Source: Deltaproteobacteria bacterium
GTDB lineage: Bacteria; Myxococcota; Kuafuiibacteriia; Kuafuiibacteriales; Kuafuiibacteriaceae
Assembly: GCA_040218735.1 (NCBI GenBank)
Contig: JAVJQW010000017.1
Span: 192,001-256,000 of the forward strand
Direction of reading: 5' to 3'
Length of the DNA: 64,000 bases
A program made the translations under genes and the position numbers. How positions within the stretch are numbered: the first letter of the stretch is position 1; every line of letters begins with the position of its first letter. Below, piece by piece: positions 2,649 through 61,511 of the stretch. The notes beneath the pieces are model-generated. The model was not told where the DNA came from. It ran no database searches and worked only from the letters and a program-made list of their open reading frames with translations.

Positions 2649-4157
2649 TCAGCGCACCTGTTGCAGCAACCAGCCGTAGATGTCGTGGCCCGCGGACAGA
2701 TCGTAGGTCTGTGTCCACGAGTCGTGCGGGACGCCCGGGTAGGTGGTGAGGATGGCGTCGTCGCGCACCGGGCACGCGATGAGGTTGTTCATCGCCTGGA
2801 TGGTGCCCTGCGGGCTGACGACGGTGTCGCCCGTCCCGTGGAAGCCCCAGATCGCGACCGCGCCCAATGCGCAACCTGCGTTGCTGAACGCGTTGCGTCC
2901 GTCGCCCGCGATGAGCACCGCGCCCGCGACCTGACTGTCGAGGTGCACGCCGAGGTAGTTCCACGAGCCGATCGCGCCACAGCTCAGGCCGGTCAGGTGC
3001 ACGCGGTTGGGGTCGACGTTGTAGTTACTGACCGCCCACGCGATGAACGACTGGATCTCCGAAACGCCGGGGCAGCCACCGCCGGGGTGCTGCGGGGACA
3101 GCACGACCCACGGCCGGCTGTTCGGCCACTGGTCGTCGTCGATCAAACGCGGCGGGCCGTTCACGAGGACGCGGAAGAGGTCCGTCGATCCGTTCCCGTT
3201 CTCACCGACGCCGTGCCAGAAGACCATCAGCGGGTACGGCGCGCCCGACGCGTTGTAGTTCGGCGGGAGGTACTCGTAGAAGCCGTTGCCCGCGCCGGTG
3301 GTACCGAGGGGGCGCGCCGTGTGTCGCGTCGATGAGTTGCCGCCGCCGACCATGCCGCCGTCCCGCGGGCCACCGACGCCGCCGTCGAAGGACGAGCTGC
3401 CGATCGCGGGGATTGCAGTCTCCGCTTGGGAGGGGCTCGACCACAACAGGCGAATCACCGCGTCGAAGCCGGAGTCGTAGTACTCGAGCCGGATGTCGTA
3501 GGTCTGACCGGCCGTGAGCATCATCGTGCCGGTGTCGCGGGTGACACCGTGGTCGGTCCAGTTGTCGATGACCGCGTTGCCGTTGACGAAGAGGCGCACG
3601 CCGTCGTCCGACTCGGTGATGAACGTGTAGGTCTCCGAGTAGTCGGCCTGCACCGTCGCGGTCCAACGGATGGAGAAGTTGTCGACCGGGACGCCGGGCT
3701 GCGGCGAGCCCGCGCCCCAGTTGAAGTCGATGAACGCATCCTGGCGCGTCTCGATCGGCGAGCCGCCGAGCGCGGTGCCGAGGTAGACCTGCCCGTTGAA
3801 GAGCGCCTGGACCCCGCCGTCTCGCATGTTCTGCGGACCACCGTCGCGCGGGGGTTGCACACCACCGTCGCGCGGACCGGCGTCACGCACCGGGCCGGCG
3901 TCACGCGGCGGACCACCGTCGCGCGGCGGGCCGGCGTCGCGGTTGGGATCGAAGCCACCGTCGCGCGGCACGCCGCCGTCGGTGAAGCCCGCGTCGACGT
4001 TCGGGCCCCCGTCGCGCGGCACGGCCGGGCCGCCGTCGCGGTCGCCGGGCAGGATGATGATCTTGCCGCCGCCTCCGTCCCGAGCGTCGCCGTCTACGTC
4101 ACCCGCGCACCCCACGAACAGGAGACACGCCACCGCGATCGAGAACCGAACGGACAT
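2649..4157 (-). CDS. Lipoprotein: RDGG-repeat linker + PA14 domain + C-terminal alpha/beta hydrolase
   Basis: Lipobox LLFVGC; PA14 motifs IDFNWG, NFSIRW, SDDGVRLFVNG, IDNWTDH; hydrolase GLSCGA, HG..D, H.SW. Start reassigned to ATG 4157. Confidence 0.85.
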   Translation of the reverse strand: MSVRFSIAVACLLFVGCAGDVDGDARDGGGGKIIILPGDRDGGPAVPRDGGPNVDAGFTDGGVPRDGGFDPNRDAGPPRDGGPPRDAGPVRDAGPRDGGVQPPRDGGPQNMRDGGVQALFNGQVYLGTALGGSPIETRQDAFIDFNWGAGSPQPGVPVDNFSIRWTATVQADYSETYTFITESDDGVRLFVNGNAVIDNWTDHGVTRDTGTMMLTAGQTYDIRLEYYDSGFDAVIRLLWSSPSQAETAIPAIGSSSFDGGVGGPRDGGMVGGGNSSTRHTARPLGTTGAGNGFYEYLPPNYNASGAPYPLMVFWHGVGENGNGSTDLFRVLVNGPPRLIDDDQWPNSRPWVVLSPQHPGGGCPGVSEIQSFIAWAVSNYNVDPNRVHLTGLSCGAIGSWNYLGVHLDSQVAGAVLIAGDGRNAFSNAGCALGAVAIWGFHGTGDTVVSPQGTIQAMNNLIACPVRDDAILTTYPGVPHDSWTQTYDLSAGHDIYGWLLQQVR

Positions 4158-4204
4158 CGCTCGGCATTGTCCACACATTCGCCTCTGCGACCAAGCTCGG
4201 GAGG

Positions 4205-4408
4205 TTACTCGAACGCCTTCTTCGCCTTGTCGAGCGCATCCCCCGCGGCATCCATGGTCTTCCCGACGGCGTTCCGCTCCCAGTAGAAACACAGCGGCCC
4301 CGCCTCGGCCTTGCAGTCGGTGCCGACATCGTCCGCCTGCGAACGACCGACCACGCCCCACGACAGGACCGCGAGCAACACGAACAACACCAACGCGACC
4401 TTCTTCAT
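4205..4408 (-). CDS. Small secreted hypothetical protein (67 aa)
   Basis: Signal peptide MKKVALVLFVLLAVLSW, AGGAG RBS, two Cys. Confidence 0.7.
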   Translation of the reverse strand: MKKVALVLFVLLAVLSWGVVGRSQADDVGTDCKAEAGPLCFYWERNAVGKTMDAAGDALDKAKKAFE

Positions 4409-13258: not shown

Positions 13259-14383
13259 GTGATCAAGCTCTCCCCTTCGGCGATGACGTGGTGGCCGGAC
13301 CTCGTCGACCACGTGCTCCCGGACTCCGTGCGCGCCGGAGACGCGTTCGATGTGCTGTCGGGACGCTTCGCGATCCAGACGTGGGCGCAGCTGAATCCGC
13401 TCGTGGAGGTCGGCGACGCGATCGGCGTGCGCCGCGCGCGCGATCAGGACCTCACGTCGTCCGGCCTCGGATTCGAGATGATGATCTCCCACCAAGGTGA
13501 CTTCTCGAACGCGCTCGTTCACCTCCCCGCCGCCGACGACCCGGTGTGGCAGACGGGCAAGCTCCCGGTGGTCATCGACGCACACGGGTTCTCCGACGCC
13601 CCCCGCGCGCACTCGAAGCGCTCCAAGATCTCGCAGGCCGCCGTCGAGGGTGGTGCCGTCGCCGTCGCGCTCGGCGGGAGCCGCCACCTGGAGGGCGCGC
13701 CGATCCTCCTCGTCCGCTCGCACGACGGCATGGACAGCCAGCCCGGCAAACCGATGAAGCCGACGGACGGTCCGGAGCAGATCCGGTTCGTGCTGTCCGA
13801 GCTCGAAGCCAAGGTGAACGACTTCGCCGCGCGGAACGGGTTGCCGTCCGTGAAGCTCGACGTCGACGAAGCGGTCATCGACGGCTTCTCCAACGGCGGC
13901 GCGCTCACGGCGATCGCCGTCGCGAGCGGCGCCGCGAAACACGGCGTCTCGTTCTCGGGCCCCACCAGCCCGCAGATCCGCGACCTCGTCCCGCCCGGCC
14001 CGGTGAACATGATCTTCGTCGCGGGTGAAAACGATCCGCTCGTCCCGCCGCAGGGACGCACCGGCCCGATGCAGGCCGACTTCCTGGCGCCGGCCGAGGC
14101 CGCGCAGATCTTCGCCGACCACAACGGCACGGGCCCGCTGAGCGGCGACGACCTCCCGCCGTTCCTGGCGAAGCTCGTCCAGCCGGGCGTCACGGTGACG
14201 GCGACCGGCGATCGCGAGAAGGGCCTCGTCGCGTACGTTCACGTCGAAGGCATGGGCCACGCGGTCCCAGGCTCCGACCCGATGATCTCGAAGGACGTCG
14301 ACCCGCGGATGCGACTGCACTCGTCGGACAAGTTCTCCGGTGCCGAGCTCGTTCAGGACTTCGCGAGCTGGGTGCGAAGCTAA
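13259..14383 (+). CDS. Esterase of PHB-depolymerase/LpqC-like alpha/beta hydrolase type, no signal peptide
   Basis: DAHG, GFSNGG nucleophile motif, GENDPLVP, GMGHAVPG. Confidence 0.7.
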   Translation: MIKLSPSAMTWWPDLVDHVLPDSVRAGDAFDVLSGRFAIQTWAQLNPLVEVGDAIGVRRARDQDLTSSGLGFEMMISHQGDFSNALVHLPAADDPVWQTGKLPVVIDAHGFSDAPRAHSKRSKISQAAVEGGAVAVALGGSRHLEGAPILLVRSHDGMDSQPGKPMKPTDGPEQIRFVLSELEAKVNDFAARNGLPSVKLDVDEAVIDGFSNGGALTAIAVASGAAKHGVSFSGPTSPQIRDLVPPGPVNMIFVAGENDPLVPPQGRTGPMQADFLAPAEAAQIFADHNGTGPLSGDDLPPFLAKLVQPGVTVTATGDREKGLVAYVHVEGMGHAVPGSDPMISKDVDPRMRLHSSDKFSGAELVQDFASWVRS

Positions 14384-15258
14384 GCCGCCGACACGAGCTT
14401 CGGCGTCGCTGCGCCGAGGAACTGGTCCGGATCCTCGATCAACTTCTGCAGCCCCTCCAACGCGATCGCGCAGGTGAGCCCGTCCTCGACGCGCTCGTCG
14501 AACGCGTACTTCACTTCGACGATCTTGCGGACCTCGGTGCCCTCGTCGGTCGGCACGACGCGATCCTGCACGCGCCCGATGGTCGCGAAGAACGGACAGT
14601 TCCCCCACTCGTAGAGGTGATGGTACGCGGCGTCGAGGCCGACGCTCCCGAGGTTCGCGACGAACAGCGAGCAGAACATCCCGTCCGGATCCACGAGCGC
14701 ACCCGGCAACCAGCGACGACGCTGAAGCCACATCGCGAAGCGCGCGAAGAGGTTCACCAAGAACCCCGGCACCATCAGGAACAGGTCGTACTCCTTCTCG
14801 GCCGTCGTCTTCTCGCTGCGCCCCTTGTCGACCATCGCGACCACGCGGTCGTGCACGCGGATCGGATCGTCGTCCGGCTCCATCGGCACCTTGAGGAGCA
14901 CCACCTTCGCGTCGGCGGTCATCGCCTTCTTCACCGAGATCGTCAGGTGCACGCCGTCGCGCTGGTACATCCGGTACCCCGCGACGTAGCGATTCAGGTT
15001 CGGATTCGCGTGCAGGAGGCGCCCGGCCGCCGCGAGGTACACGTGCAAGAGCGTGAGGTGCTTGCCGGTCTGTTCGCGCTGACGTTCGAGCCACGCGCGC
15101 GTCTTCGTGAGATCCAGGGTCTGCGTGAAGTACACCGCCGCGCCGTTCCGGTCGGGCGAGATGTGCAGGTACATCCGGCGGTAGGGGGCGACGAGCTTCG
15201 TGACGTCTTGGTCTTTCGCGTACATCGGTTCTTCGTCCTTCTCTTCAGTGGATTTCAC
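14380..15258 (-). CDS. 2-oxoacid dehydrogenase E2 catalytic-domain-like acyltransferase
   Basis: NLGSVG, YHHLYEWG, FDERVEDG. Alternative start ATG 15225. Confidence 0.8.
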   Translation of the reverse strand: MKSTEEKDEEPMYAKDQDVTKLVAPYRRMYLHISPDRNGAAVYFTQTLDLTKTRAWLERQREQTGKHLTLLHVYLAAAGRLLHANPNLNRYVAGYRMYQRDGVHLTISVKKAMTADAKVVLLKVPMEPDDDPIRVHDRVVAMVDKGRSEKTTAEKEYDLFLMVPGFLVNLFARFAMWLQRRRWLPGALVDPDGMFCSLFVANLGSVGLDAAYHHLYEWGNCPFFATIGRVQDRVVPTDEGTEVRKIVEVKYAFDERVEDGLTCAIALEGLQKLIEDPDQFLGAATPKLVSAA

Positions 15259-16381
15259 TCTTGCGCCAACGACGCAGCGATCGCCGAAAGCTCTCCGCGC
15301 TCGCGAAGCCGAGCATCTCGGCGGCGCGTTCGGCCGGGACCCCTTCCCGGAGCAGCCGCTCGGCGCTCTGCTGGCGGAGGCCGTCGACGACCTTCGAGAA
15401 CGTGGTGCCCTCGTCGCTCAGTCGCCGCTGCAGAGTGCGCGGCGTGATCGCGAGGTGCTCCGCGACGCGCTCGAGCACCCGGCCGGCGACGCGGCTGCGC
15501 CGCGCCCCCTGGGCACCTCGCTCGCTTCCTCCCTCACGCGAGGGCGCGAGCTCGAGCACCCGGCCGGCGACGCGGCTGCGCCGCGCCCCCTGGGCACCTC
15601 GCTCGCTTCCTCCCTCACGCGAGGGCGCGAGCTCGAGCTCCAGGTCGTCGTATCCGAGCTGCTGCTCCACGACGTGACAGACCGTCGCCACGAACGACGA
15701 CGACTCGGGGCTGCGCTCCGCCGCCTGCTGCGCGAGGAACTCGTGCACGACCGGGTCCGACGACGTCAGCGCGAGCGCGGAACCCTCCGCACCGAGCGCG
15801 AAGCCGCAGCTGTCGGCGCCGTAGGTGATCGGACACAAAAAGTAGTCGTCGAGGCGCGCCGCGTCGCTCGGCGCTTCGTGTGCGAACCACACGCGCTCCA
15901 ACTCGATGGGGGCCGCGGCGACCAATCGAATCGCGCGCACCACGAACGCGATCGAAAACTCGTTCTGCAGCGCGCCCAGCCCCGAGCTCGATCCGAGGAC
16001 GAGGTACCGGAGCTCGACGCCCGCATCGACGTCCGACACCTCGAAGCGCCCGACGGGGTTGATCTGCCCGCCGTACCGCGCGAGCGCACGCAGCGCCTCC
16101 GCGACGGTCGGCGCGGTGCGCGCGAGGAGCTCGACGAGGCCGTACGTCCCCTCCGGGATCGCCTCCGCGAGCGTGAGGCCGAACGACGGATCCTTCCGGC
16201 GAACCGCCACGTCCTGGATCAACCCGCGCACCGACGACAGCGGCACCGTGCAGGAGCCCATCGCCGCGCTCTCGGGGAGGTGGTGCTTCGCGAGCAGCGC
16301 GGCGCGCTCGTCCGCGTTGGCGTTCGACAGCGACAGCAGCACCGGCGTGAGTCGGAACGTGAAGAGCGGGTCGCTTTTCAT
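15245..16381 (-). CDS. AraC-family regulator with 54-aa in-frame insertion in the HTH region
   Basis: RTAPTVAEAL..LARY, V.FAH; HTH LAITPRTLQRRL..EGTTF...LGFASAESFRR. Start ATG 16381. Confidence 0.88.
   Translation of the reverse strand: MKSDPLFTFRLTPVLLSLSNANADERAALLAKHHLPESAAMGSCTVPLSSVRGLIQDVAVRRKDPSFGLTLAEAIPEGTYGLVELLARTAPTVAEALRALARYGGQINPVGRFEVSDVDAGVELRYLVLGSSSGLGALQNEFSIAFVVRAIRLVAAAPIELERVWFAHEAPSDAARLDDYFLCPITYGADSCGFALGAEGSALALTSSDPVVHEFLAQQAAERSPESSSFVATVCHVVEQQLGYDDLELELAPSREGGSERGAQGARRSRVAGRVLELAPSREGGSERGAQGARRSRVAGRVLERVAEHLAITPRTLQRRLSDEGTTFSKVVDGLRQQSAERLLREGVPAERAAEMLGFASAESFRRSLRRWRKSEIH
15469..15638. repeat. Two exact tandem 81-bp palindromic units bounded by GCTCGAGC
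   Basis: Unit 1 15469-15549, unit 2 15550-15630, closing GCTCGAGC 15631-15638; encodes ELAPSREGGSERGAQGARRSRVAGRVL twice. Confidence 0.95.
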
Positions 16382-16412
16382 CGCGCCCGGACCGTGCCAC
16401 GCGAAGGCCAGG

Positions 16413-17633
16413 TCATCCAGCGCGCAGCGCGGGGGCATCGGCCTCCTCCTTCAGACCCGCGAGCTCGGCGAGCAGGTGCTGGGCGACGTCGGTCGAGCGA
16501 ACGAGCTGCTCGGGGTCGACGTTTTCGACGGTGTCGCTCGGGTGGTGGTAGCCGCGCGGCGCGTGCTGCTCGGGGTCGATGCAGGTCAACGCGATCGCGC
16601 GATAGCCGTACGCGAGGAACGGGAGCGCGTCCGTGCCCCCCGCGGGGACGACGTACTTCGGCACGGCCGGCTGTCCGGCGTTGGCGGCCGCGGCGTCGAC
16701 GGCGGCGACCAGCGAGGCGGGCCGCTCGATGCGGTACAGCTCGCCCTCCTCCAGCGCGAACAGGTCACCGTTGCTGAGGGTGTCGAGGATGATGATCTCG
16801 GTGTCGTCGCGCGACCACTCGCCCTGCATCGCCTTCACCAGCGCGTAGGCGCCACCGGTGCCGGCCTCCTCCGCGCCCGTGAATCCGAAGACAACCTCCA
16901 CGTCGTCCGCGGCGCGCTGCGCCCACGCCTCCGCGAGCACGACCTGGGCCGCGCAGCCGGTGAGGTTGTCCGCCGCCCCCGGGACGACTTCGTTCTGCAA
17001 GACGACTTGCGCATTGACTAGGAACACGAGCACCGCGGGGATCAACAGCACGTAGCCCGGCCAGCGCGGGAGCTCGAAGAGCACGGACGCGACTTCGAAC
17101 GCCGCCGCCAGGACGACGCCGACCAGCGGCAACGCGAGCTGCTTCTGCAGGAACGGGAGGAACGACGGGGGCGGCGCGGCCATCACCTTCAAGACCTCGG
17201 GACGGAAGAGGAAGCCGGTGTACGCGGAGTCGACGTGGGCGAGGAACACGAGGCGACGGCGCATGGGGCCCTTCGCCGGGCGCGTCGCGAGGAGGTTCTG
17301 GCTGGAGACCTTGGGCCAGAGGTGCCTGAGGATCAGGCCGCGGCGTGTCGCCTCCGAGAAGAAGCTCACCGCGACCAGCACGTGGCCCGCGGCGGCGAGG
17401 TAGGCCCATGGGAGGGCGGCGAAGGCGAGCGCCAACCCGAAGTGCAGCGCGAGGCTCCCGTAGATGTGGCGGGGGTAGCGGAACGCGTGCCACGAGACGT
17501 CGTAGCCGGCCTTCTCGAGGCGCGCTGCGATGGCGTCCTGCGCGGCGCGCTCGTCCGGAGTGCCCGTGAGGCGCGTGCGGGCGATCCCGCCCAGCCAGCG
17601 GAGGGTGGAGACGACGTCGTCGGAGGCGCGCAT
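16413..17633 (-). CDS. M28-family membrane peptidase
   Basis: LAHVDS, GAADNLTG, GAEEAG..GA, GGTDA, YHHPSDT; several TM helices. Start ATG 17633. Confidence 0.85.
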   Translation of the reverse strand: MRASDDVVSTLRWLGGIARTRLTGTPDERAAQDAIAARLEKAGYDVSWHAFRYPRHIYGSLALHFGLALAFAALPWAYLAAAGHVLVAVSFFSEATRRGLILRHLWPKVSSQNLLATRPAKGPMRRRLVFLAHVDSAYTGFLFRPEVLKVMAAPPPSFLPFLQKQLALPLVGVVLAAAFEVASVLFELPRWPGYVLLIPAVLVFLVNAQVVLQNEVVPGAADNLTGCAAQVVLAEAWAQRAADDVEVVFGFTGAEEAGTGGAYALVKAMQGEWSRDDTEIIILDTLSNGDLFALEEGELYRIERPASLVAAVDAAAANAGQPAVPKYVVPAGGTDALPFLAYGYRAIALTCIDPEQHAPRGYHHPSDTVENVDPEQLVRSTDVAQHLLAELAGLKEEADAPALRAG

Positions 17634-17706
17634 GTACCGAGGGTGGGATAGCCGCCCACGCCCCGCCCAGAACCGCAGGCGACAAATCGGGGAGCCGACG
17701 CGCCAC

Positions 17707-17788
17707 TTGCGACTCCTGCAACTCGGGGCGCCGCGCGGGTTCACTTGCGGGTGGGTGCAAGAGATCCGGTGTCGGCATGGCCTTTGCT
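17707..17788 (+). promoter_or_regulatory. Double TTGC-N7/8-GCAA sites + sigma54 -24/-12 element
   Basis: TTGCGACTCCTGCAA (17707-17721), TTGCGGGTGGGTGCAA (17745-17760), CGGCATGGCCTTTGCT (17773-17788). Near-identical cassette at 23928-24009. Confidence 0.75.
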
Positions 17789-17800
17789 CAGCAGCCACCG

Positions 17801-29467: not shown

Positions 29468-29982
29468 GCCGACCTCCTCGCTTCCGCCTTGCGCTCACGC
29501 TCGACCGCGCGTTCGAGCTCGAGTCGCGCCGCGCGCAAGCGCGAGTACACCGTCGGCAACGCGAGATCGAACGCCTCCGCGATCTCGGGCGCCGTCATGC
29601 CCTCGAGCTCGGACAGGATGAACACCGTCCGCTTCTTGTCGTCGAGCGCACCGAGGAGCCGGTGCAGCGTTTGGGCGGCCTCGCTCCGCGCGTAAGCGTC
29701 AGTCGTCGCATCCGGCGTCGCCGCCGCGTATGCGTCCTCGCGCCGCTCCTTCCGCATCCGTGTCCGGCGATACCGCTGCGCGATCCGCAGCGTGATCGCA
29801 AACAGCCAGGTACGGATCGACGATCGCCCCTCGAACTCCTCCAGCCTGCGGTGCGCGACGAGGAAGACGTCGTGCACGGCGTCGTCGACCGAAGCGTCGT
29901 CCACGCCGAGGCGCAGCGCGCTTCGGAACACAAACCCGTGGTGCGCCTCGTACACCTCTTCGAATGTGGGCCGCCCCTCCAC
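29464..29982 (-). CDS. ECF RNA polymerase sigma-70 factor
   Basis: DDAVHDVFLV, FEGRSSIRTWLFAI, EIAE....TVYSRL..AR; GTG 29982 preceded by AAGGAG. Confidence 0.92.
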   Translation of the reverse strand: MEGRPTFEEVYEAHHGFVFRSALRLGVDDASVDDAVHDVFLVAHRRLEEFEGRSSIRTWLFAITLRIAQRYRRTRMRKERREDAYAAATPDATTDAYARSEAAQTLHRLLGALDDKKRTVFILSELEGMTAPEIAEAFDLALPTVYSRLRAARLELERAVERERKAEARRSA

Positions 29983-30086
29983 TCGCTCCTTCGTCCCCGC
30001 CCGCGCGCCAATCCATCGACGAATCTGCGCCGCGCCCACATTTTGCGACGGTTTGGGGGGCGCGCGGCAACTCACCCAACCCGTCG

Positions 30087-30872
30087 ATGACTCGCTGGAT
30101 CACCTTGCTGCTCGTCCTGGCGGGCTGCGCGGCGCCTACGGAGGCGCTCGAGTGCACGTCCGACCTGGACTGCCCCGCCGAAGAGCGTTGTTCGACCGGG
30201 GTCTGCGGTCCACCGACCGACGGCCCGGTCGACGCCGGCCCCCAAGTCGCCTCGGACGCCGGTAGCCACGCCGTAGCGGACGCGGGCGTCGTCCCGGACG
30301 CAGGGCCCCAGGCACGCCCCGACGCTGGAGTCCGGGTCCCGTCGGGGCCTCCACCCTTCCGGCCTCCGCCCGCGTCCCCTCTGTGTATGGGGACCACGAC
30401 CTCGACCTGCGCCTGCGCGGACGGCCGCGACGGCGAGCGGCGCTGCCGCAGCGACGACTCCCTCGGCGCGTGTGTCTGCGGCGACACGGAGGAGGACCGC
30501 ATCGCCCGGGTCCGCGGCGGCATCGTCGGCTTGTGGGCGGGGACGCGCTTCACCGTGTGGGACGGCGAACAGCTCGTCTGGGTCGCGTTCCGCGCCGACG
30601 GGACGCAGGGATCCGAGTGCGTCGGCGCGTGCCTCACGTTCTTCTGGCCCGAAGACGGCACCCCGACCCCGAACCGCACCTACCGCATCTACGACGTCAC
30701 CGCGGACGACACGGGACGCGGCGACCTGAGCTTCGCCTACGCGTCGTTCACCCGCGCCCTCGCGCTGGAACGCATCACGATCAGCGCGGACGAAGACCGC
30801 ATGACCTTCGAAGCGCGGCACGACGAGATCGCCCACCCGCTCCTGTTCGACCTCGTCCGCTACGCACCGTGA
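30087..30872 (+). CDS. Cys-rich lipoprotein with DAG repeats
   Basis: Lipobox VLAGC; CTSDLDC...C..GVC; repeated DAG; C.C..G..G...C. Confidence 0.75.
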   Translation: MTRWITLLLVLAGCAAPTEALECTSDLDCPAEERCSTGVCGPPTDGPVDAGPQVASDAGSHAVADAGVVPDAGPQARPDAGVRVPSGPPPFRPPPASPLCMGTTTSTCACADGRDGERRCRSDDSLGACVCGDTEEDRIARVRGGIVGLWAGTRFTVWDGEQLVWVAFRADGTQGSECVGACLTFFWPEDGTPTPNRTYRIYDVTADDTGRGDLSFAYASFTRALALERITISADEDRMTFEARHDEIAHPLLFDLVRYAP

Positions 30873-30955
30873 CTAGGCTGAGGCCGGTCGCGCGAGCGAC
30901 GGGTCCGAAGACTGTGCCAAGCCGTCCCGCGCAGCGGGCCGGCGTTATGGCCTAG
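30873..30955. repeat. 83-bp imperfect hairpin bounded by CTAG at both ends
   Basis: CTAGGC...GCCGG...GACGG / CCGTC...CCGGC...GCCTAG; CTAG at 30873-30876 and 30952-30955. Confidence 0.6.
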
Positions 30956-31744
30956 AAGGCCGTATCGGCTAGCCGGCGGGGGAGTGCCCAGGCTCGACTT
31001 CGCTTTCGGCGACGGCCGGGGACCTCTCCTCCGGTCAGAAGCCGTTCGTCTCGCCGGGTGTGGCCCCTCGGCTTCGCTGATGGCCGCGGTGGGCGAGCCG
31101 AACTCATTCCCTACGGAGAGGTCCCCGCCCGCCGCCATCGCTCCGCGTGTCGAGTTGCCGCTCACCAGCGATCCGATGGGTGGTGAATCGCCGCGCCCGA
31201 TGTCTGCGCTCCGCTACGCGCGTTGCCCAAACCCAGCGCGTGCATCGGCGTGCTCTCGTGCTGATCTGCAGTCCTACTGCGTTGGGATCAGGCAACGCGA
31301 ATAGCGGAGCGCAAGGGGCGGGCGCTCCGATTCCGAAAGCCGAGCCGCTCCGCCGAGCGCAACGTGCCTTGCCCATCGCGAACGCGGGGTCCCCGTGTCG
31401 ATCGATGGCCCAGCAAGCCGAACCGAGGTCGGCGTGCCCGCCGCCGGAGCGGAGCGAGCGCCTGGGCAGCATGTCGCATCACCTCCGCAATGGCGCGAAG
31501 CTCCTTGGGTCACCCACCCCCATCGGATCGCCGAGTGAAGGCAACTCGACGCGCGGAGCGCTGGGGGCGGACGGGGACGCTCTGGAGGGAATCAGTTCGG
31601 CTCGCCCGCCGCGGCAAACAGCGAAGCCGAGGGGCCACACCAGGCGAGACGAACGGCTTCTGACCGGAAGAGCGTCCCCGGCCGACGCCAAAAGCGAAGC
31701 CGGACCTGGGCACTCCCCTACCGGCAATCCGATACGGCCTCCTA
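30953..31744. mobile_element. Non-coding element with ~235-bp terminal inverted repeats (MITE-like or large structured RNA)
   Basis: Arms 30953-31186 and 31510-31744 are imperfect reverse complements; ends TA|GAAGGCCGTATCGG ... CCGATACGGCCTCC|TA; internal hairpins; no credible ORF. Confidence 0.8.
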
Positions 31745-32716
31745 TGGGAAGCGCAGCTCGATCCACAGGCCGCTGCGGGCGCCGAAGCGGCCCATGCGAA
31801 CGTTCACGCCCTCGATCTCGTAGCGCGGGCGCACCCACGACACGACGCCCTCGAGATCGAGCATGAACGCGAGGTTGTTCGTCACCACGAACGACAACCC
31901 CGTCGACAAGGTCGAGCCGCCCCAGAAGCTGCGCACCGGCGCGACCTCTTGGCTGACGGAGTCGGCCGCGAACCGCCCGAGCTGGAGCCCGATGCAGATG
32001 GGCACCTCCAGCCACTTCGTCGGCGTCGCGACGTAACAAGACGAGCCGTCCATCGTCCAAAGGCCCACCGTCGCCTCGGGCACCGGCGTCGTCCGGTCGA
32101 GCCACACCGTCGCCGCACCGTAGAACCGCAGCGGATCCCACAGCACCGCGCCGCCGAACGACAGACCGAAGCCCGTCCCCGGCAGCACCTGCGTGCCGAC
32201 GCGCGCCCCCGCGCGGAAGTCGAGGCGCGGCAGCGGGATGCCGAACACGATCCCGGGCGCGCGCAGCCCGTCTTGGTCGAGCGGAGGTCGACCAGGCGCG
32301 CGCGCCGGCTTCGGTGGCGCCGTCGAAGTCTCGGTCTCTTCGACCGGCTCTTCCTCGGTCGGCTGCGCCCACGAGATCGCCGCCGGGTCGATCGCCATCG
32401 CGACGACGAGCGCCGTGACGTCGACGATCGAGGCGCACGAGGTCTCGCCCTCCTCGGACTGAACCGTTCGCTCGTGATGGCGCCCGTCGTCGTCGACGGT
32501 GTCGATGCGCACCGTGTAGCGCCCGCCGGCCGCGGTTGCGGTCGCCGTGACCTCGAGCGCGCGGTCGAAGGTCTCGTCGAGCGAGCGACCGAGCAGCAGC
32601 TCGATTCGATCGACGACGACCTGGCGCTCGGGACAAACCTCGGGGGCGCGCCAGTCGAACGTGACGGGCCCGCTCGCTCCCACCACGAGCAGCGTAATCA
32701 GCTCAGGCGTCATCAC
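31742..32716 (-). CDS. Hypothetical exported protein, C-terminal beta-barrel-like region
   Basis: N-terminal W.AP..CP motif, Pro-rich linker, amphipathic strands ending IELRFP; its TAG stop supplies the TA flank of the adjacent element. Confidence 0.75.
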   Translation of the reverse strand: MMTPELITLLVVGASGPVTFDWRAPEVCPERQVVVDRIELLLGRSLDETFDRALEVTATATAAGGRYTVRIDTVDDDGRHHERTVQSEEGETSCASIVDVTALVVAMAIDPAAISWAQPTEEEPVEETETSTAPPKPARAPGRPPLDQDGLRAPGIVFGIPLPRLDFRAGARVGTQVLPGTGFGLSFGGAVLWDPLRFYGAATVWLDRTTPVPEATVGLWTMDGSSCYVATPTKWLEVPICIGLQLGRFAADSVSQEVAPVRSFWGGSTLSTGLSFVVTNNLAFMLDLEGVVSWVRPRYEIEGVNVRMGRFGARSGLWIELRFP

Positions 32717-57340: not shown

Positions 57341-58936
57341 ATGCGCCTCGCTATCGCCGTCATGGTGGGGCTGGCCGTCGTAGCCACCGTGCTCGTGCCC
57401 CAGCCCGTCCAGGCCCAGGACTGGACCTCGATCCGCGGGATCCGCGTGGTCGCCAACGTGCGAGGCAAGGATCGGCGCTACAGGAACGCCGTGGGGCGCC
57501 CGATCCGGCGCCGGCTCGTGGAGGCGATCGGGCCGCTGGTCCCCTCCCGAGAGTTCGAACGCGCGAAGAAGAAGCTGCGCCTGCGCGGCGTCCGCGCAAA
57601 CAGCCCGAAGAACCTCGCCCGCGTCGGCCTCGAGCTCGGCGCCGAGCACATCATCGACGTGTACGTGAAGCGCCGCCGCCGGGGCGCCGAGGTCCGCACG
57701 CGGATCGTCGACGTCGCGACGTCCGAGATCGCGTTCGAGCAGCGGACCAGCCTGAAGAGCGTGAAACGCGAAGCCAAGAAGGCCGGCCGCGACATCGGCA
57801 CCGAGGTCATCGCGAAGCTCCAGGAGATCACGAACGCCTACGGCGGCTCCGTGACCGCGTCCGCGCCACCGCCTTCCCCGCCTCCTCCCCCGCCGGCCGA
57901 GGACGAGCCCGCGCCGTTCGCGGGTGACCCGGCCGTCCTGCCCGAGACCCGCATCACCGCGAGCCCAGAGCCACCGCCTCCGCCGCCCGCCGGCGGGGAC
58001 CCGTACGCGGGGATCGACGACCCGATCGCGCCGTCCGTGTCGACCGAGAAGAAGGACGAAGGCGGCGTGAAGTGGTTCTCGCCGAAGGGTGAGGAGCAGG
58101 CCCCGCCCCCGACCAACACCGCGTCGCTCGACGATCCGCCACCGCCGACCGAAGGCGGCGCGAAGCGGGTGTGGTTCGAGCCGCCGCCGCCCGAAGAGAC
58201 GGAGCCCTCCGAGTTCGTGCGCGTCGGGGTGCAGGGAGGCGCAGGGGTCCTGCGCAGTTACACCCTCGCGACGAACGAGGGTTCATCGGCGCTGTCGTAC
58301 ACACTCGATCCGCTGAGCATGCTCGCGTTCGACTTCGAGCTGATCGTCCCGAAGGCCAACGTCGGTCTGCGCATCGACGCGGCGTTCCGTCCGGTCGCCT
58401 ACTCGATCGATCGCGGGGAGGACGGCACCACGTTCCCGTCGGGCCTGCTGATCGACTTCATGGGCGCCGTGAACTACCACGCGGAGGTCCTCGGCTCCGG
58501 ACGCAACGCGCTGAAGGTCATCCCGAACGCGGGCGTGCGCGTGGCGGCCGCCAACGTCGAGCAACACGCGGGCAACATCATCCCGTCGGCGACGGGCGTC
58601 GGTGTGTTCATCGGCACGGACGTGCGCTACCCGATCAACGACCTCTTCGAGGTCGAGGGCGGCGCGTTCTTCGGCTTGGTGGTGGCGTACGACGAGACGC
58701 CCCTCGCGTCGGGGAACGCCAACGGTGGCTTCACGGCCGGCGGGCGCGTCGGGATGCGCGTCTGGGTCACGCCGTACTTGGGCATCACGTTCGACAACGT
58801 GCTGAGCTACGACGCGATCTCGTTCTCGGACTCACCCGAGCGGCCCCTCCCCCCAGACGAGGAGGGTCGGATATCGGACGCCTCGATCACGATCTTCGAT
58901 GTACGATCTTCCGCGGGCATCGCGTTCCGCTTCTGA
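57341..58936 (+). CDS. Exported protein: basic N-domain, Pro-rich linker, C-terminal outer-membrane beta-barrel-like domain
   Basis: Signal peptide ending VQA-QD, PPPPP tracts, terminal GIAFRF. Start 57326 or 57341. Confidence 0.72.
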   Translation: MRLAIAVMVGLAVVATVLVPQPVQAQDWTSIRGIRVVANVRGKDRRYRNAVGRPIRRRLVEAIGPLVPSREFERAKKKLRLRGVRANSPKNLARVGLELGAEHIIDVYVKRRRRGAEVRTRIVDVATSEIAFEQRTSLKSVKREAKKAGRDIGTEVIAKLQEITNAYGGSVTASAPPPSPPPPPPAEDEPAPFAGDPAVLPETRITASPEPPPPPPAGGDPYAGIDDPIAPSVSTEKKDEGGVKWFSPKGEEQAPPPTNTASLDDPPPPTEGGAKRVWFEPPPPEETEPSEFVRVGVQGGAGVLRSYTLATNEGSSALSYTLDPLSMLAFDFELIVPKANVGLRIDAAFRPVAYSIDRGEDGTTFPSGLLIDFMGAVNYHAEVLGSGRNALKVIPNAGVRVAAANVEQHAGNIIPSATGVGVFIGTDVRYPINDLFEVEGGAFFGLVVAYDETPLASGNANGGFTAGGRVGMRVWVTPYLGITFDNVLSYDAISFSDSPERPLPPDEEGRISDASITIFDVRSSAGIAFRF

Positions 58937-58946
58937 GCTCTTCGTC

Positions 58947-60350
58947 ATGCGTTCTCTTCGTCTCGTCCTCGCGCCCCTGCTCTGCGCCTTCGCCGTCCCG
59001 GCGCAGGCGGCGCCAGTGATCGCGTTCGGCGATAGCTGGGGCAATCAGAGCTGGCCCGACCTGCAGGCGGCGCTCTCGGCCGCGGGGTACCCGACGCTCT
59101 CCGTCGCGAACCACTCGATCGACGGCACGACGGCGCTCGAGTACGCGACGACGCAGTCCGGGATGATCACGAGCGCGCTGCAGCTCAACCCGGACGCGGA
59201 GTGGATCTATCTGTCGATCGGCGGCAACGACCTCTTCAACCACTACATGGCCGGCAACCCCGGGACGTCGGTCGCGGCGAACGACGCCAACATTCGGACG
59301 ATGCTCGACCAGATCTTCGCCGAGCGCCCGGACATCCGCGTGGTGCAGTTCGGCTACGACCGAACGAACTTCGTGCAGAGCGCGGCGTGCATGACGCAGG
59401 CGGAGCAGTTCTTCGGCGCCGGGATCACGCAGGCGCAGATCAACCAGATCAACGAGACCGAGCTCGGCACCGTGTTCAGCGCGATGGAGGCGAGCTACCC
59501 GAACTACACGTACATCCCGCTGTGGGGGACGCTCCAGGCCGCGGCCGGGGCGCCGGTCACGCAGAACGACCCGAGCCCCGTGCAGTACATGGTCGACTGC
59601 TTCCACCTCAACTCGAACGGGTACCGCATCGTGCACGACGAGCTCGTCGCGAACTACTGGGACTCGTTCACGCCGCCCACCGCGGTGTTCGGCGACGACG
59701 GCACGGACCGGTGCGTGGGCAACACGATCACGTTCACGAGCCAGAGCACCGGCAACACCCGCGTGCGGTGGTTCGTCGACGGCGTCGACAGCGGCACGAA
59801 CAACACCCTCGCGGTGAACATGACGACGGCGGGCAACGTCGACGTCTCGCTGAGCGCGTTCAACGAGGTGTGGTCCGACACCGTGTCGCAGACGATCGTC
59901 GTCGACCCGTGCCGTGACGCCGGCTTCCCGCGCGACGCCGGAACGCCGGACGCCGGCTTCCGCGACGGCGGCGTCCCGGACGGCGGCTTCGTCGACGCGG
60001 GCTTCCGCGACGGCGGCGACCGCGACGGCGGTGACGTCATGCGCGACGGCGGCGACCGCGACGGCGGCGACCGCGACGGCGGCGGGGCCCCGCGTGACGG
60101 CGGCGCGGTGGTGCGCGACGGCGGCACCGTGTCCCCCGGCCGCGACGCCGGTTTCACCGGGCCGGGTCGCGACGGCGGATCGACCACGACGCCGAGCATC
60201 GGCGGCGACTCCTGGGAGCTCGGCGGCGGCTGTTCGTCGTCGGGGGGCGACGCGACGCTCTGGAGCCTGTTGGTCTTGCTCGGTCTCGGGCTCAGCCGCG
60301 CATCCGCGCTTCGATCTGCTCGGGCGTCAGCACCTCGACGATCGAAGTGA
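58947..60350 (+). CDS. SGNH/GDSL hydrolase + PKD-like domain + RDGG repeats + MYXO-CTERM-like tail
   Basis: FGDSW, SIGGND, DCFHLN; GGGCSSS...hydrophobic...Arg-rich C-terminus. Confidence 0.85.
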   Translation: MRSLRLVLAPLLCAFAVPAQAAPVIAFGDSWGNQSWPDLQAALSAAGYPTLSVANHSIDGTTALEYATTQSGMITSALQLNPDAEWIYLSIGGNDLFNHYMAGNPGTSVAANDANIRTMLDQIFAERPDIRVVQFGYDRTNFVQSAACMTQAEQFFGAGITQAQINQINETELGTVFSAMEASYPNYTYIPLWGTLQAAAGAPVTQNDPSPVQYMVDCFHLNSNGYRIVHDELVANYWDSFTPPTAVFGDDGTDRCVGNTITFTSQSTGNTRVRWFVDGVDSGTNNTLAVNMTTAGNVDVSLSAFNEVWSDTVSQTIVVDPCRDAGFPRDAGTPDAGFRDGGVPDGGFVDAGFRDGGDRDGGDVMRDGGDRDGGDRDGGGAPRDGGAVVRDGGTVSPGRDAGFTGPGRDGGSTTTPSIGGDSWELGGGCSSSGGDATLWSLLVLLGLGLSRASALRSARASAPRRSK

Positions 60351-60764: not shown

Positions 60765-61511
60765 TCAGCGCACGTGGTTCGGCGCGTGTTCGTCGCGCGG
60801 TCGGTAGGCGGTCGGCGATCGCTCCGCGAAGCGGCGGAACTCGTGGCACAGGTGCGCCTGGTCGGCGAAGCCACACGCCAACGCGACCTCGGCGAGGTCT
60901 TCGTTCGCCGCCACACGCTCCACCGCGCGTGAGAAGCGGCCGAGGCGCGCGTAGCGCTTGGGGGTGAGGCCGACGTGGCGATCGAAGGCCCGCACGACGG
61001 ACGAGCGACTGCGTCCGGTCGCATCGATCGTCGCCCTGACGGTCGCGCCGGCGTCGAGCTGCGCGGTCGCAAACCGAACGAGACGCGAGGGCGGAGTTTC
61101 GGCGTGCTTCGCGAGGGCGGCGTCGAAGGTCTCCAGCGCGGACGTCGGCGAATCGGACCCGACGAGCGCGGCCCACAGCGCTTCGGCGTCGTCCCACAGC
61201 TCGGCCAGCGGGACGTCGTGCTCCGTCAGCGCGCGCGCCGACACGCCGAGCAGCTCCGCGGCGGCGCCCGGCAGCAGGACGGCGCCGGCGATGCGACGCA
61301 TCGGCGCGGTCGCGATCGTCGCCGGCCGAGTGCGTGGTCCGGCCACCACGGGCGCGAGCAGCGCGTCGGTCTCCGCGCTGAGCCCCACGAGGATCTGCAC
61401 CCGCGAAGACGGGAGCACGGTCTCCGTCGTGTGCGCCACGTGCGTCGCGTCGAACCACAGGAAGTCGACGAACGGCGCGAGCCGCGGTGAAGGCTTCACC
61501 GTGAGGAACAC
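60765..61511 (-). CDS. AraC-family regulator (DUF6597-type)
   Basis: PS..LAPFV..LW, VGLTPK.YAR..RF, GFADQAHL..EFRRF. Confidence 0.9.
   Translation of the reverse strand: MFLTVKPSPRLAPFVDFLWFDATHVAHTTETVLPSSRVQILVGLSAETDALLAPVVAGPRTRPATIATAPMRRIAGAVLLPGAAAELLGVSARALTEHDVPLAELWDDAEALWAALVGSDSPTSALETFDAALAKHAETPPSRLVRFATAQLDAGATVRATIDATGRSRSSVVRAFDRHVGLTPKRYARLGRFSRAVERVAANEDLAEVALACGFADQAHLCHEFRRFAERSPTAYRPRDEHAPNHVR

Follow-up and report, generated by a model that had tools for sequence, protein, structure and literature searches.

The locus carries an AraC-family regulator gene with a tandem repeat inside its coding sequence. The window, by which we mean the whole 64-kb stretch of DNA analysed here, has a G+C content of 69.1%. 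Among the 79 rows that Tandem Repeats Finder returned for the window, the repeat at 15469–15638 has clearly the top score (340), with a period of 81 bp, 2.1 copies and 100% matches. The host gene is coding-like (GC3 = 0.90), and its protein matches the Pfam families Arabinose_bd (2.4e-28) and HTH_18 (4e-12), both above the cut-offs. The host is an AraC/XylS family regulator, with an N-terminal sensor and a C-terminal double helix-turn-helix. The features of the locus are listed in Table 1.

Table 1. Host gene and insert at the repeat locus, in window coordinates, with the parts of the insert given in the gene's reading direction.
Feature	Position	Strand	Remarks
AraC-family regulator gene, host of the insert	15245..16438	-	397 aa from the first start; the 378-aa form (later Met) is P0001
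N-terminal ligand-binding domain (Arabinose_bd), residues 46-218	15785..16303	-	Pfam; pLDDT mostly 84-94
Junction octamer GCTCGAGC, copy 3, first of the three as the gene reads	15631..15638	.	Inner CTCGAG reads Leu-Glu; one Leu-Glu kept in empty-site orthologues
73-bp core, unit copy 2	15558..15630	.	Identical to 15477-15549
Junction octamer GCTCGAGC, common to both units	15550..15557	.	Sequence
73-bp core, unit copy 1	15477..15549	.	81% G+C; Arg/Gly-rich in the gene's frame, pLDDT <50
Junction octamer GCTCGAGC, copy 1, last of the three as the gene reads	15469..15476	.	Sequence
Helix-turn-helix region after the insert (HTH_18 at residues 326-391)	15266..15463	-	Pfam, AlphaFold2 model

The 81-bp unit consists of a 73-bp core and the octamer GCTCGAGC, making 27 codons; it is small and contains no transposase gene. 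Exact matches to the 81-mer locate at 15469–15549 and 15550–15630 and nowhere else in the window, with up to three mismatches allowed, and two matches were seen in 0/100 shuffles. A preliminary description of this DNA had reported two identical units with the octamer at all three junctions, and this is exactly what the sequence holds. The octamer is the sole true palindrome of the unit. It occurs nine times in the window (6.9 expected), and its inner hexamer CTCGAG occurs 66 times (53.6 expected). Outside the three junctions, 6 octamer sites and 63 CTCGAG sites stand in the window without a unit.

Both strands of the unit are open in the phase that reads the border as Leu-Glu, and five of the six frames are open altogether, so the open frame of the host gene is weak evidence of selection. 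We notice that a unit length divisible by three has a prior of one in three. The translations of the two strands are dissimilar, and third-position G+C reaches 24/27 on the strand opposite the gene versus 22/27 on the gene strand.

In the host protein, the two units form residues 268–321, each of them Leu-Glu followed by 25 residues; the 27-codon length keeps the frame, as had been proposed. Sequence matches of the host protein among solved structures are closest for VirS (8rcx) and 5chh. We modeled the protein with AlphaFold2 on alignment A1, described below, and obtained a mean pLDDT of 72; the fold of this model matches CdpR (5chh, E 1.1e-11) and the N-terminal fragment of VirS (8rcw). Residues 267–317 fall below a pLDDT of 50, and both domains are otherwise folded. 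One helix (249–270) precedes the insert, and four helices (333–342, 347–364, 369–375, 381–394) follow it. Superimposing the part after the insert on the AraC DNA-binding domains 3mkl, 3oio and 3w6v gave 71–74 aligned columns at 1.4–2.1 Å. Based on the helices and pLDDT of the model together with this superposition, the insert site is predicted to be the loop between helices one and two of the DNA-binding domain, and the insert itself to be disordered. It is predicted to be translated as an Arg/Gly-rich, positively charged loop of 54 residues, which adjoins the recognition helices. Judging by the folded domains of the model, the host protein probably tolerates this loop; any influence on DNA binding would be modest at most.

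In order to compare the insert site among relatives, we aligned the best 9 of 29 proteins (P0001–P0029) returned by a homologue search (alignment A1). In P0003, 324/343 positions outside the insert are identical (94.5%), and no unit is present. The same is true of P0004–P0009, with 75.7% to 33.2% identity outside the insert and no unit. At the empty site P0003 reads, free of gaps, ...DDLE|LERVAEHL..., and P0004–P0009 are likewise uninterrupted there. A single Leu-Glu is retained at the empty site of the orthologue proteins, at the place where the junction octamer stands. Excising the two units from the window protein gives ...DDLELERVAEHL..., the exact reading of P0003, which bears out the earlier claim that removal of 162 bp restores an AraC sequence. 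The window protein and P0003 differ at 19 positions, all of them within residues 5–221, and the DNA-binding part has 0 differences. The same description had taken the DNA to be foreign to the gene and had named empty-site orthologues as one check. Judging by the protein sequences, the 162 bp are foreign to this AraC-family gene, because seven orthologues, from 94.5% down to 33% identical, have an empty site.

P0002, whose source name reads 'MAG: AraC family ... [Deltaproteobacteria ...]', carries exactly one unit and, outside the insert, is identical to the window protein at 324/324 positions. One and the same gene is therefore found with 0 units (P0003–P0009), 1 unit (P0002) and 2 units (the window protein, P0001). 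This series agrees with the tandem expansion suggested in the preliminary description.

We further searched for the unit in other proteins with two peptides: P0030, read from the gene strand, and P0031, read from the opposite strand in the same phase. These are the two frames that read CTCGAG as Leu-Glu, so the Leu-Glu phase of the copies found is a property of the queries. The searches covered protein libraries of 5.8 billion and 1.84 billion sequences, the latter made of representatives. With P0030, the longer proteins returned were P0001, P0002 and P0032. P0032 is a protein of 1081 aa with NACHT and FGE-sulfatase domains, and it has a full 27-residue unit on the same strand at 790–818, just before the FGE-sulfatase domain (822–1073). 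This unit is identical at 24/29 residues and has Leu-Glu on both sides; the HMMER match to P0030 is weak (E 0.73), and BLASTP finds an exact stretch of 11 residues.

The opposite-strand peptide P0031 retrieved P0033 and P0034, in which the units stand as reverse complements. P0033, a DUF1801 protein of 152 aa, has its unit at 110–138 (E 1.6e-7, 26/29 identical), and its Pfam DUF1801 match stops at the unit, at profile position 77 of 85; solved structures gave no match that would show its empty site. P0034 has 189 aa, no Pfam family and a weak match to the window unit (E 2.8e-2, 22/29 identical). Its unit has 24–25 of 29 residues in common with those of P0035, which the same query found in the library of 1.84 billion representatives (E 1.1e-27). 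P0035 has three tandem units at its N-terminus, also as reverse complements, and these have diverged from one another at 1–3 of 29 positions. Another match of P0031, P0036, has the same repeat period and a different sequence (36% identity), and we consider it unrelated.

Every unit found is 27 residues long. Leu-Glu stands at 9 of the 10 unit boundaries in P0032–P0035, and the exception is a Leu-Asp in P0033. The P0032 unit is compatible with the reverse complement of the other-strand units at 24–26 of 29 codon positions, where the maximum in 2000 shuffles was 22–23. Since units are found as reverse complements, what these proteins have in common is DNA and not a protein motif. The known hosts are thus the AraC regulator, the NACHT/FGE-sulfatase protein, the DUF1801 protein and two proteins without a Pfam family. 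So far the units have been seen only in proteins of a few uncultivated bacteria, and the named ones are all 'MAG: Deltaproteobacteria bacterium'.

The preliminary description had named many dispersed copies as support for its reading and a unit unique in the genome as its refutation. Beyond this gene the unit occurs in the four unrelated proteins, which hold it on both strands. Many copies were not seen: four other hosts were found among 5.8 + 1.84 billion proteins, two of them individually weak (P0032 with E 0.73, P0034 with E 0.028), and the window has no second locus. Searching the masked window with the unit by blastn-short returned chance matches of 11–17 nt only. When the units of P0032–P0035 were searched against the window by tblastn, 8/8 rows at E <= 0.01 were the locus itself, and a looser tblastn search added only low-complexity noise. 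The inner 20-mer of the unit gave two matches, both unrelated, in 185,579 representative genomes, a collection that does not include the source genome. These matches, in a Kofleriaceae MAG (L001) and a Chthoniobacterales MAG (L002), have alignment scores of 47 and 41, where the null gives 43.4 +/- 3, and share nothing beyond the 20-mer. Among plasmids, blastn of the locus gave two short chance matches, and neither plasmids nor phages matched P0031 by tblastn. A mobiliser of the RAYT/HuH or IS110 type had also been proposed; no transposase, RAYT, Y1/HUH or IS110 domain was detected among the 44 coding-like ORFs of the window. A word search of an open-access literature subset turned up no account of such an element for myxobacteria or 'Deltaproteobacteria'.

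The unit had been described as palindromic and likened to REPs and RPEs. The small stems named in that description are present, but the overall symmetry is at the level of chance. Single-strand folding of the unit, compared with 200 shuffles, gave z = -0.93 for the + strand and -1.43 for the - strand, neither of which is significant. In the 73-bp core, 22/73 positions are self-complementary, versus a shuffle mean of 24.4. Terminal arms of 16 nt that include the octamers are 81% complementary; beyond the palindromic octamer, inverted repeats match at 5/8 and 6/15 positions (P = 0.39 versus shuffles). The unit is not palindromic beyond chance in fold, dyad symmetry or terminal inverted repeats. 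Rfam gave 0 matches at the gathering score in the window and three sub-threshold matches at the locus (E >= 4.4), all outside the unit.

The reading that we favour, and consider probable, is that the insert represents two tandem copies of a low-copy, coding-tolerant repeat family, which inserted at CTCGAG and was then duplicated. At the beginning, a single unit would enter a pre-existing GCTCGAGC in the helix 1–2 loop, where the inner CTCGAG is a Leu-Glu codon pair. The octamer on both sides of the unit would then be a target-site duplication of 6–8 bp or a regenerated site. Regeneration could proceed by recombination between the CTCGAG of the element and that of the target, or by an IS200/IS605-like insertion next to a motif, and the sequence fits either route. 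The unit would finally double, either by a second entry into the regenerated site or by slippage or unequal exchange at the octamers that flank it. This doubling would be very recent, because the two copies are 100% identical and a one-unit allele exists in an otherwise identical protein. Since the unit has 27 codons and is free of stops in frame, the host gene stays open.

The idea that CTCGAG is targeted was also put forward in the preliminary description; CTCGAG borders are present at this locus, and Leu-Glu recurs at almost all boundaries in the other proteins. At the DNA level it is seen at one site, and the remaining copies are viewed through Leu-Glu in proteins; we infer that CTCGAG is probably the target of the element. 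The family itself may move as a non-autonomous element, with its enzyme supplied in trans. Tandem arrays of the unit persist, as the slightly diverged three-unit array of P0035 shows at the level of protein sequence. Several findings weigh against the favoured reading. Four other host proteins make a very small family for a mobile element; the window holds many octamer and CTCGAG sites without a unit; and neither terminal inverted repeats, dyad symmetry or a hairpin beyond chance nor, among the 44 ORFs of the window, a mobiliser domain was detected.

The small size of the family also fits an explanation without any dedicated mobile element, which we regard as unlikely, if still worth weighing. 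Here breaks at CTCGAG would receive a copied segment of a donor array, such as that of P0035, either through templated insertion mediated by microhomology or through an exchange in which short CTCGAG repeats take part, and the number of units would vary by slippage. The unit has no detected terminal inverted repeats or structure, and the window has no mobiliser. CTCGAG is common in the 64 kb, which makes microhomology frequent, and the higher third-position G+C on the opposite strand fits an origin as a coding repeat. Against this stand the constant length and borders in 8 units of P0002 and P0032–P0035, where ad hoc repair would be expected to leave ragged ends, as well as the occurrence of units in both orientations; a donor was not found in the window.

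Another concern is the number of units. The second copy might be an assembly artefact, so that the one-unit (P0002) and two-unit forms are one allele, which seems to us improbable. In a short-read assembly graph an exact 81-bp tandem forms a loop, through which the path may run once or twice; the sequences come from metagenome assemblies, and a copy number of 2 rests on one assembly. The identity of P0002 outside the insert and the 100% identity of both window copies are in keeping with such an artefact. The cluster of the two-unit protein P0001, however, is listed on 3 contigs, and the diverged array of P0035 argues that real tandem arrays exist. Far less credible is a native, lineage-specific loop of the regulator that was merely duplicated in tandem. 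The insert is indeed in frame and a one-unit form exists (P0002), but seven orthologues have no unit at all, one of them 94.5% identical outside the insert, and the unit also occurs in unrelated proteins, including as the reverse complement. The empty sites and the reverse-complement copies contradict this reading.

Insertion of a repeat family at CTCGAG followed by duplication, the reading favoured above, could be taken further. The unit could be a selfish mini-element adapted to the genes of gene-dense, high-G+C genomes by its 27 codons, its openness on both strands and a border that is the same as its target, CTCGAG, a hexamer frequent in coding DNA of this kind; this is a speculative notion to which we give little weight. 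If border and target are the same and palindromic, each copy has a cut site at either end. A nuclease that cleaves CTCGAG could then release the unit, which could re-insert in either orientation or head-to-tail, always in frame. Such a nuclease might cut and ligate in a restriction-like manner, or it might be an HUH-type enzyme that works on single-stranded DNA.

The best-known examples of in-frame 'selfish DNA in genes' are those of Rickettsia and scattered MITE fusions. The present case would add a free-living, uncultivated lineage of high G+C, and its form is unusually clean: a single gene exists with 0, 1 or 2 units, the codon length is fixed, and the palindromic border doubles as a common codon pair. 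If the targeting of CTCGAG is true, the unit would be a natural example of how disordered loops join folded proteins without breaking them, and it could serve as a VNTR-type strain marker for these organisms. Should no more than a handful of copies ever come to light, the family would be a curiosity of local repeat dynamics.

By comparing the unit with known systems, we find that it is an in-frame intragenic small repeat outside every named family compared, because it lacks a palindrome (RPE, REP, PARCEL) and terminal inverted repeats (MITE) and lies within genes rather than between them (MIRU, REP). In behaviour it appears closest to RPEs and in-frame MITEs, and its variable tandem number resembles that of MIRU-type repeats. 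Rickettsia palindromic elements (RPEs), reportedly the subject of Ogata et al. in 2000 and 2002, are like the unit a short family dispersed in unrelated genes, in frame, translated as an extra peptide and located at positions thought compatible with the fold of the host protein. RPEs are palindromic and measure about 105–150 bp, whereas the unit has 81 bp, and its dyad symmetry and folding stay at chance level. The two are unrelated in sequence, and the unit differs also in its host, a high-G+C free-living lineage. To our knowledge, RPEs neither form tandem arrays within genes nor carry palindromic hexamers at their borders. RPEs are also numerous, with 44 in one genome according to the relevant passages of PMC10969869, in contrast to five host genes known for the unit.

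Several bacterial MITEs are described as fusing in frame with genes, among them ERIC, BOX, RUP, Nezha, Chunjie and QMITE1 in the pertinent parts of PMC10969869 and PMC3184786. MITEs and the unit are alike in being small and without transposase coding capacity, in their direct repeats at the borders, in having filled and empty sites and in occasional in-frame fusion. As at a MITE target site, GCTCGAGC flanks each unit and orthologues have empty sites at the protein level; a duplicated and a regenerated site look alike here. In contrast to MITEs, the unit has no terminal inverted repeats beyond the octamer and no known parent insertion sequence, and it shows a strict 27-codon length and head-to-tail arrays with one border repeat in common.

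PARCEL shares with the unit an intragenic tandem repeat of about 25–27 residues that apparently moves between genes as DNA. PARCEL DNA is dyad-symmetric, and the amphipathic motif of 25 residues that it encodes stands in long arrays within membrane-targeted ORFs. The unit, as far as the motif can be compared by description, differs in its lack of dyad symmetry, its dissimilar strand readings and its 1–3 units in ordinary cytoplasmic proteins. REP/BIME-RAYT systems and the single-strand elements of IS200/IS605 resemble the unit in their lack of terminal inverted repeats, their small sub-terminal stems and their short border sequence, and a mechanism of the IS200/IS605 type, which inserts next to a motif, would reproduce the site-unit-site-unit-site pattern. 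REPs are extragenic, strongly palindromic sequences of 20–40 nt whose head is a conserved GTAG or CGTC, and their genomes carry a RAYT gene. Unlike them, all copies of the unit seen in the window and the protein libraries are intragenic, its two stems are unlike one another and do not exceed chance, and no Y1/HUH gene is present in the window.

MIRUs sit between the genes of operons, outside folded domains, and their sequences are not known to be related to the unit. In contrast to this intergenic location, our units lie inside coding sequence, between helices of a DNA-binding domain. The likeness to MIRU-VNTR loci is one of size and number: a unit of tens of bases, a high-G+C host and head-to-tail arrays that vary between close strains. 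Variation in tandem number is also seen for the unit, with 0, 1 or 2 copies in the AraC gene, as given by the assemblies, and 3 in P0035.

We compared the AraC-family regulator with P0003, an orthologue that has 94.5% identity to it and lacks any 81-bp unit, and all 19 amino-acid differences fall within residues 5–221, which correspond to the sensor domain. The DNA-binding half of the regulator shows no amino-acid difference from P0003. According to the ORF list, the regulator gene (15245–16438, -) overlaps both of its same-strand neighbors, the downstream acyltransferase-domain ORF and the upstream peptidase M28 ORF, and the three may form one transcription unit. A scan of 15000–16800 for promoters and terminators returned no sigma-70-like promoter and no terminator-like site. 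The second AraC-family gene of the window is free of the insert.

We notice that a 9-nt stretch in the flank of the regulator gene itself, GCGAGGTGC (15450–15458), is perfectly complementary to 9 nt within each of the two 81-bp units (15513–15521 and 15594–15602). This complementarity is probably due to chance in DNA so rich in G+C.

Repeats of 27 residues were also found in P0036, a protein of 566 aa from the representatives library with at least six of them, which was matched there by the peptide translated from the opposite strand of the unit (36% identity, E 3.2e-7). We rejected P0036 as a relative of the 81-bp unit because its repeat sequence differs, and the match is taken as compositional. 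Within the window, overlapping tandem repeats with periods of 15, 21 and 51, with 71–86% matches and as many as 8.7 copies, occupy 59912–60125, inside ORF 58899–60350 (+) and C-terminal to its GDSL-lipase domain (residues 43–249). This low-complexity sequence within the gene has no relation to the 81-bp unit. Another tandem repeat, of 18 nt (3872–3938; 3.7 copies, 77% matches), lies within ORF 2649–4361 (-), which also carries a PA14 domain.

No family reached its gathering score in an Rfam search of the full 64 kb (1–64000), and tRNAs, rRNAs and known riboswitches are therefore absent from the window. A long imperfect palindrome (30953–31744) takes up most of the space separating ORFs 29964–30872 (+) and 31742–32716 (-), and for this palindrome Rfam gave only sub-threshold, hairpin-like matches. 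Its three pairs of arms share a common center near 31349.

Coordinates of the palindrome components and of selected genes in the window
Feature	Position	Strand	Detail
Palindrome arms	30953–31023/31674–31744		86%
Palindrome arms	31019–31125/31573–31679		107 nt, 87%
Palindrome arms	31121–31180/31519–31578		82%
Inner hairpin of palindrome	31185–31239/31279–31333		
Acyltransferase-domain ORF	14380–15258	-	2-oxoacid dehydrogenase acyltransferase catalytic-domain match; downstream of regulator gene
Peptidase M28 ORF	16413–17798	-	upstream of regulator gene
Second AraC-family gene	60765–61511	-	DUF6597 + HTH_18
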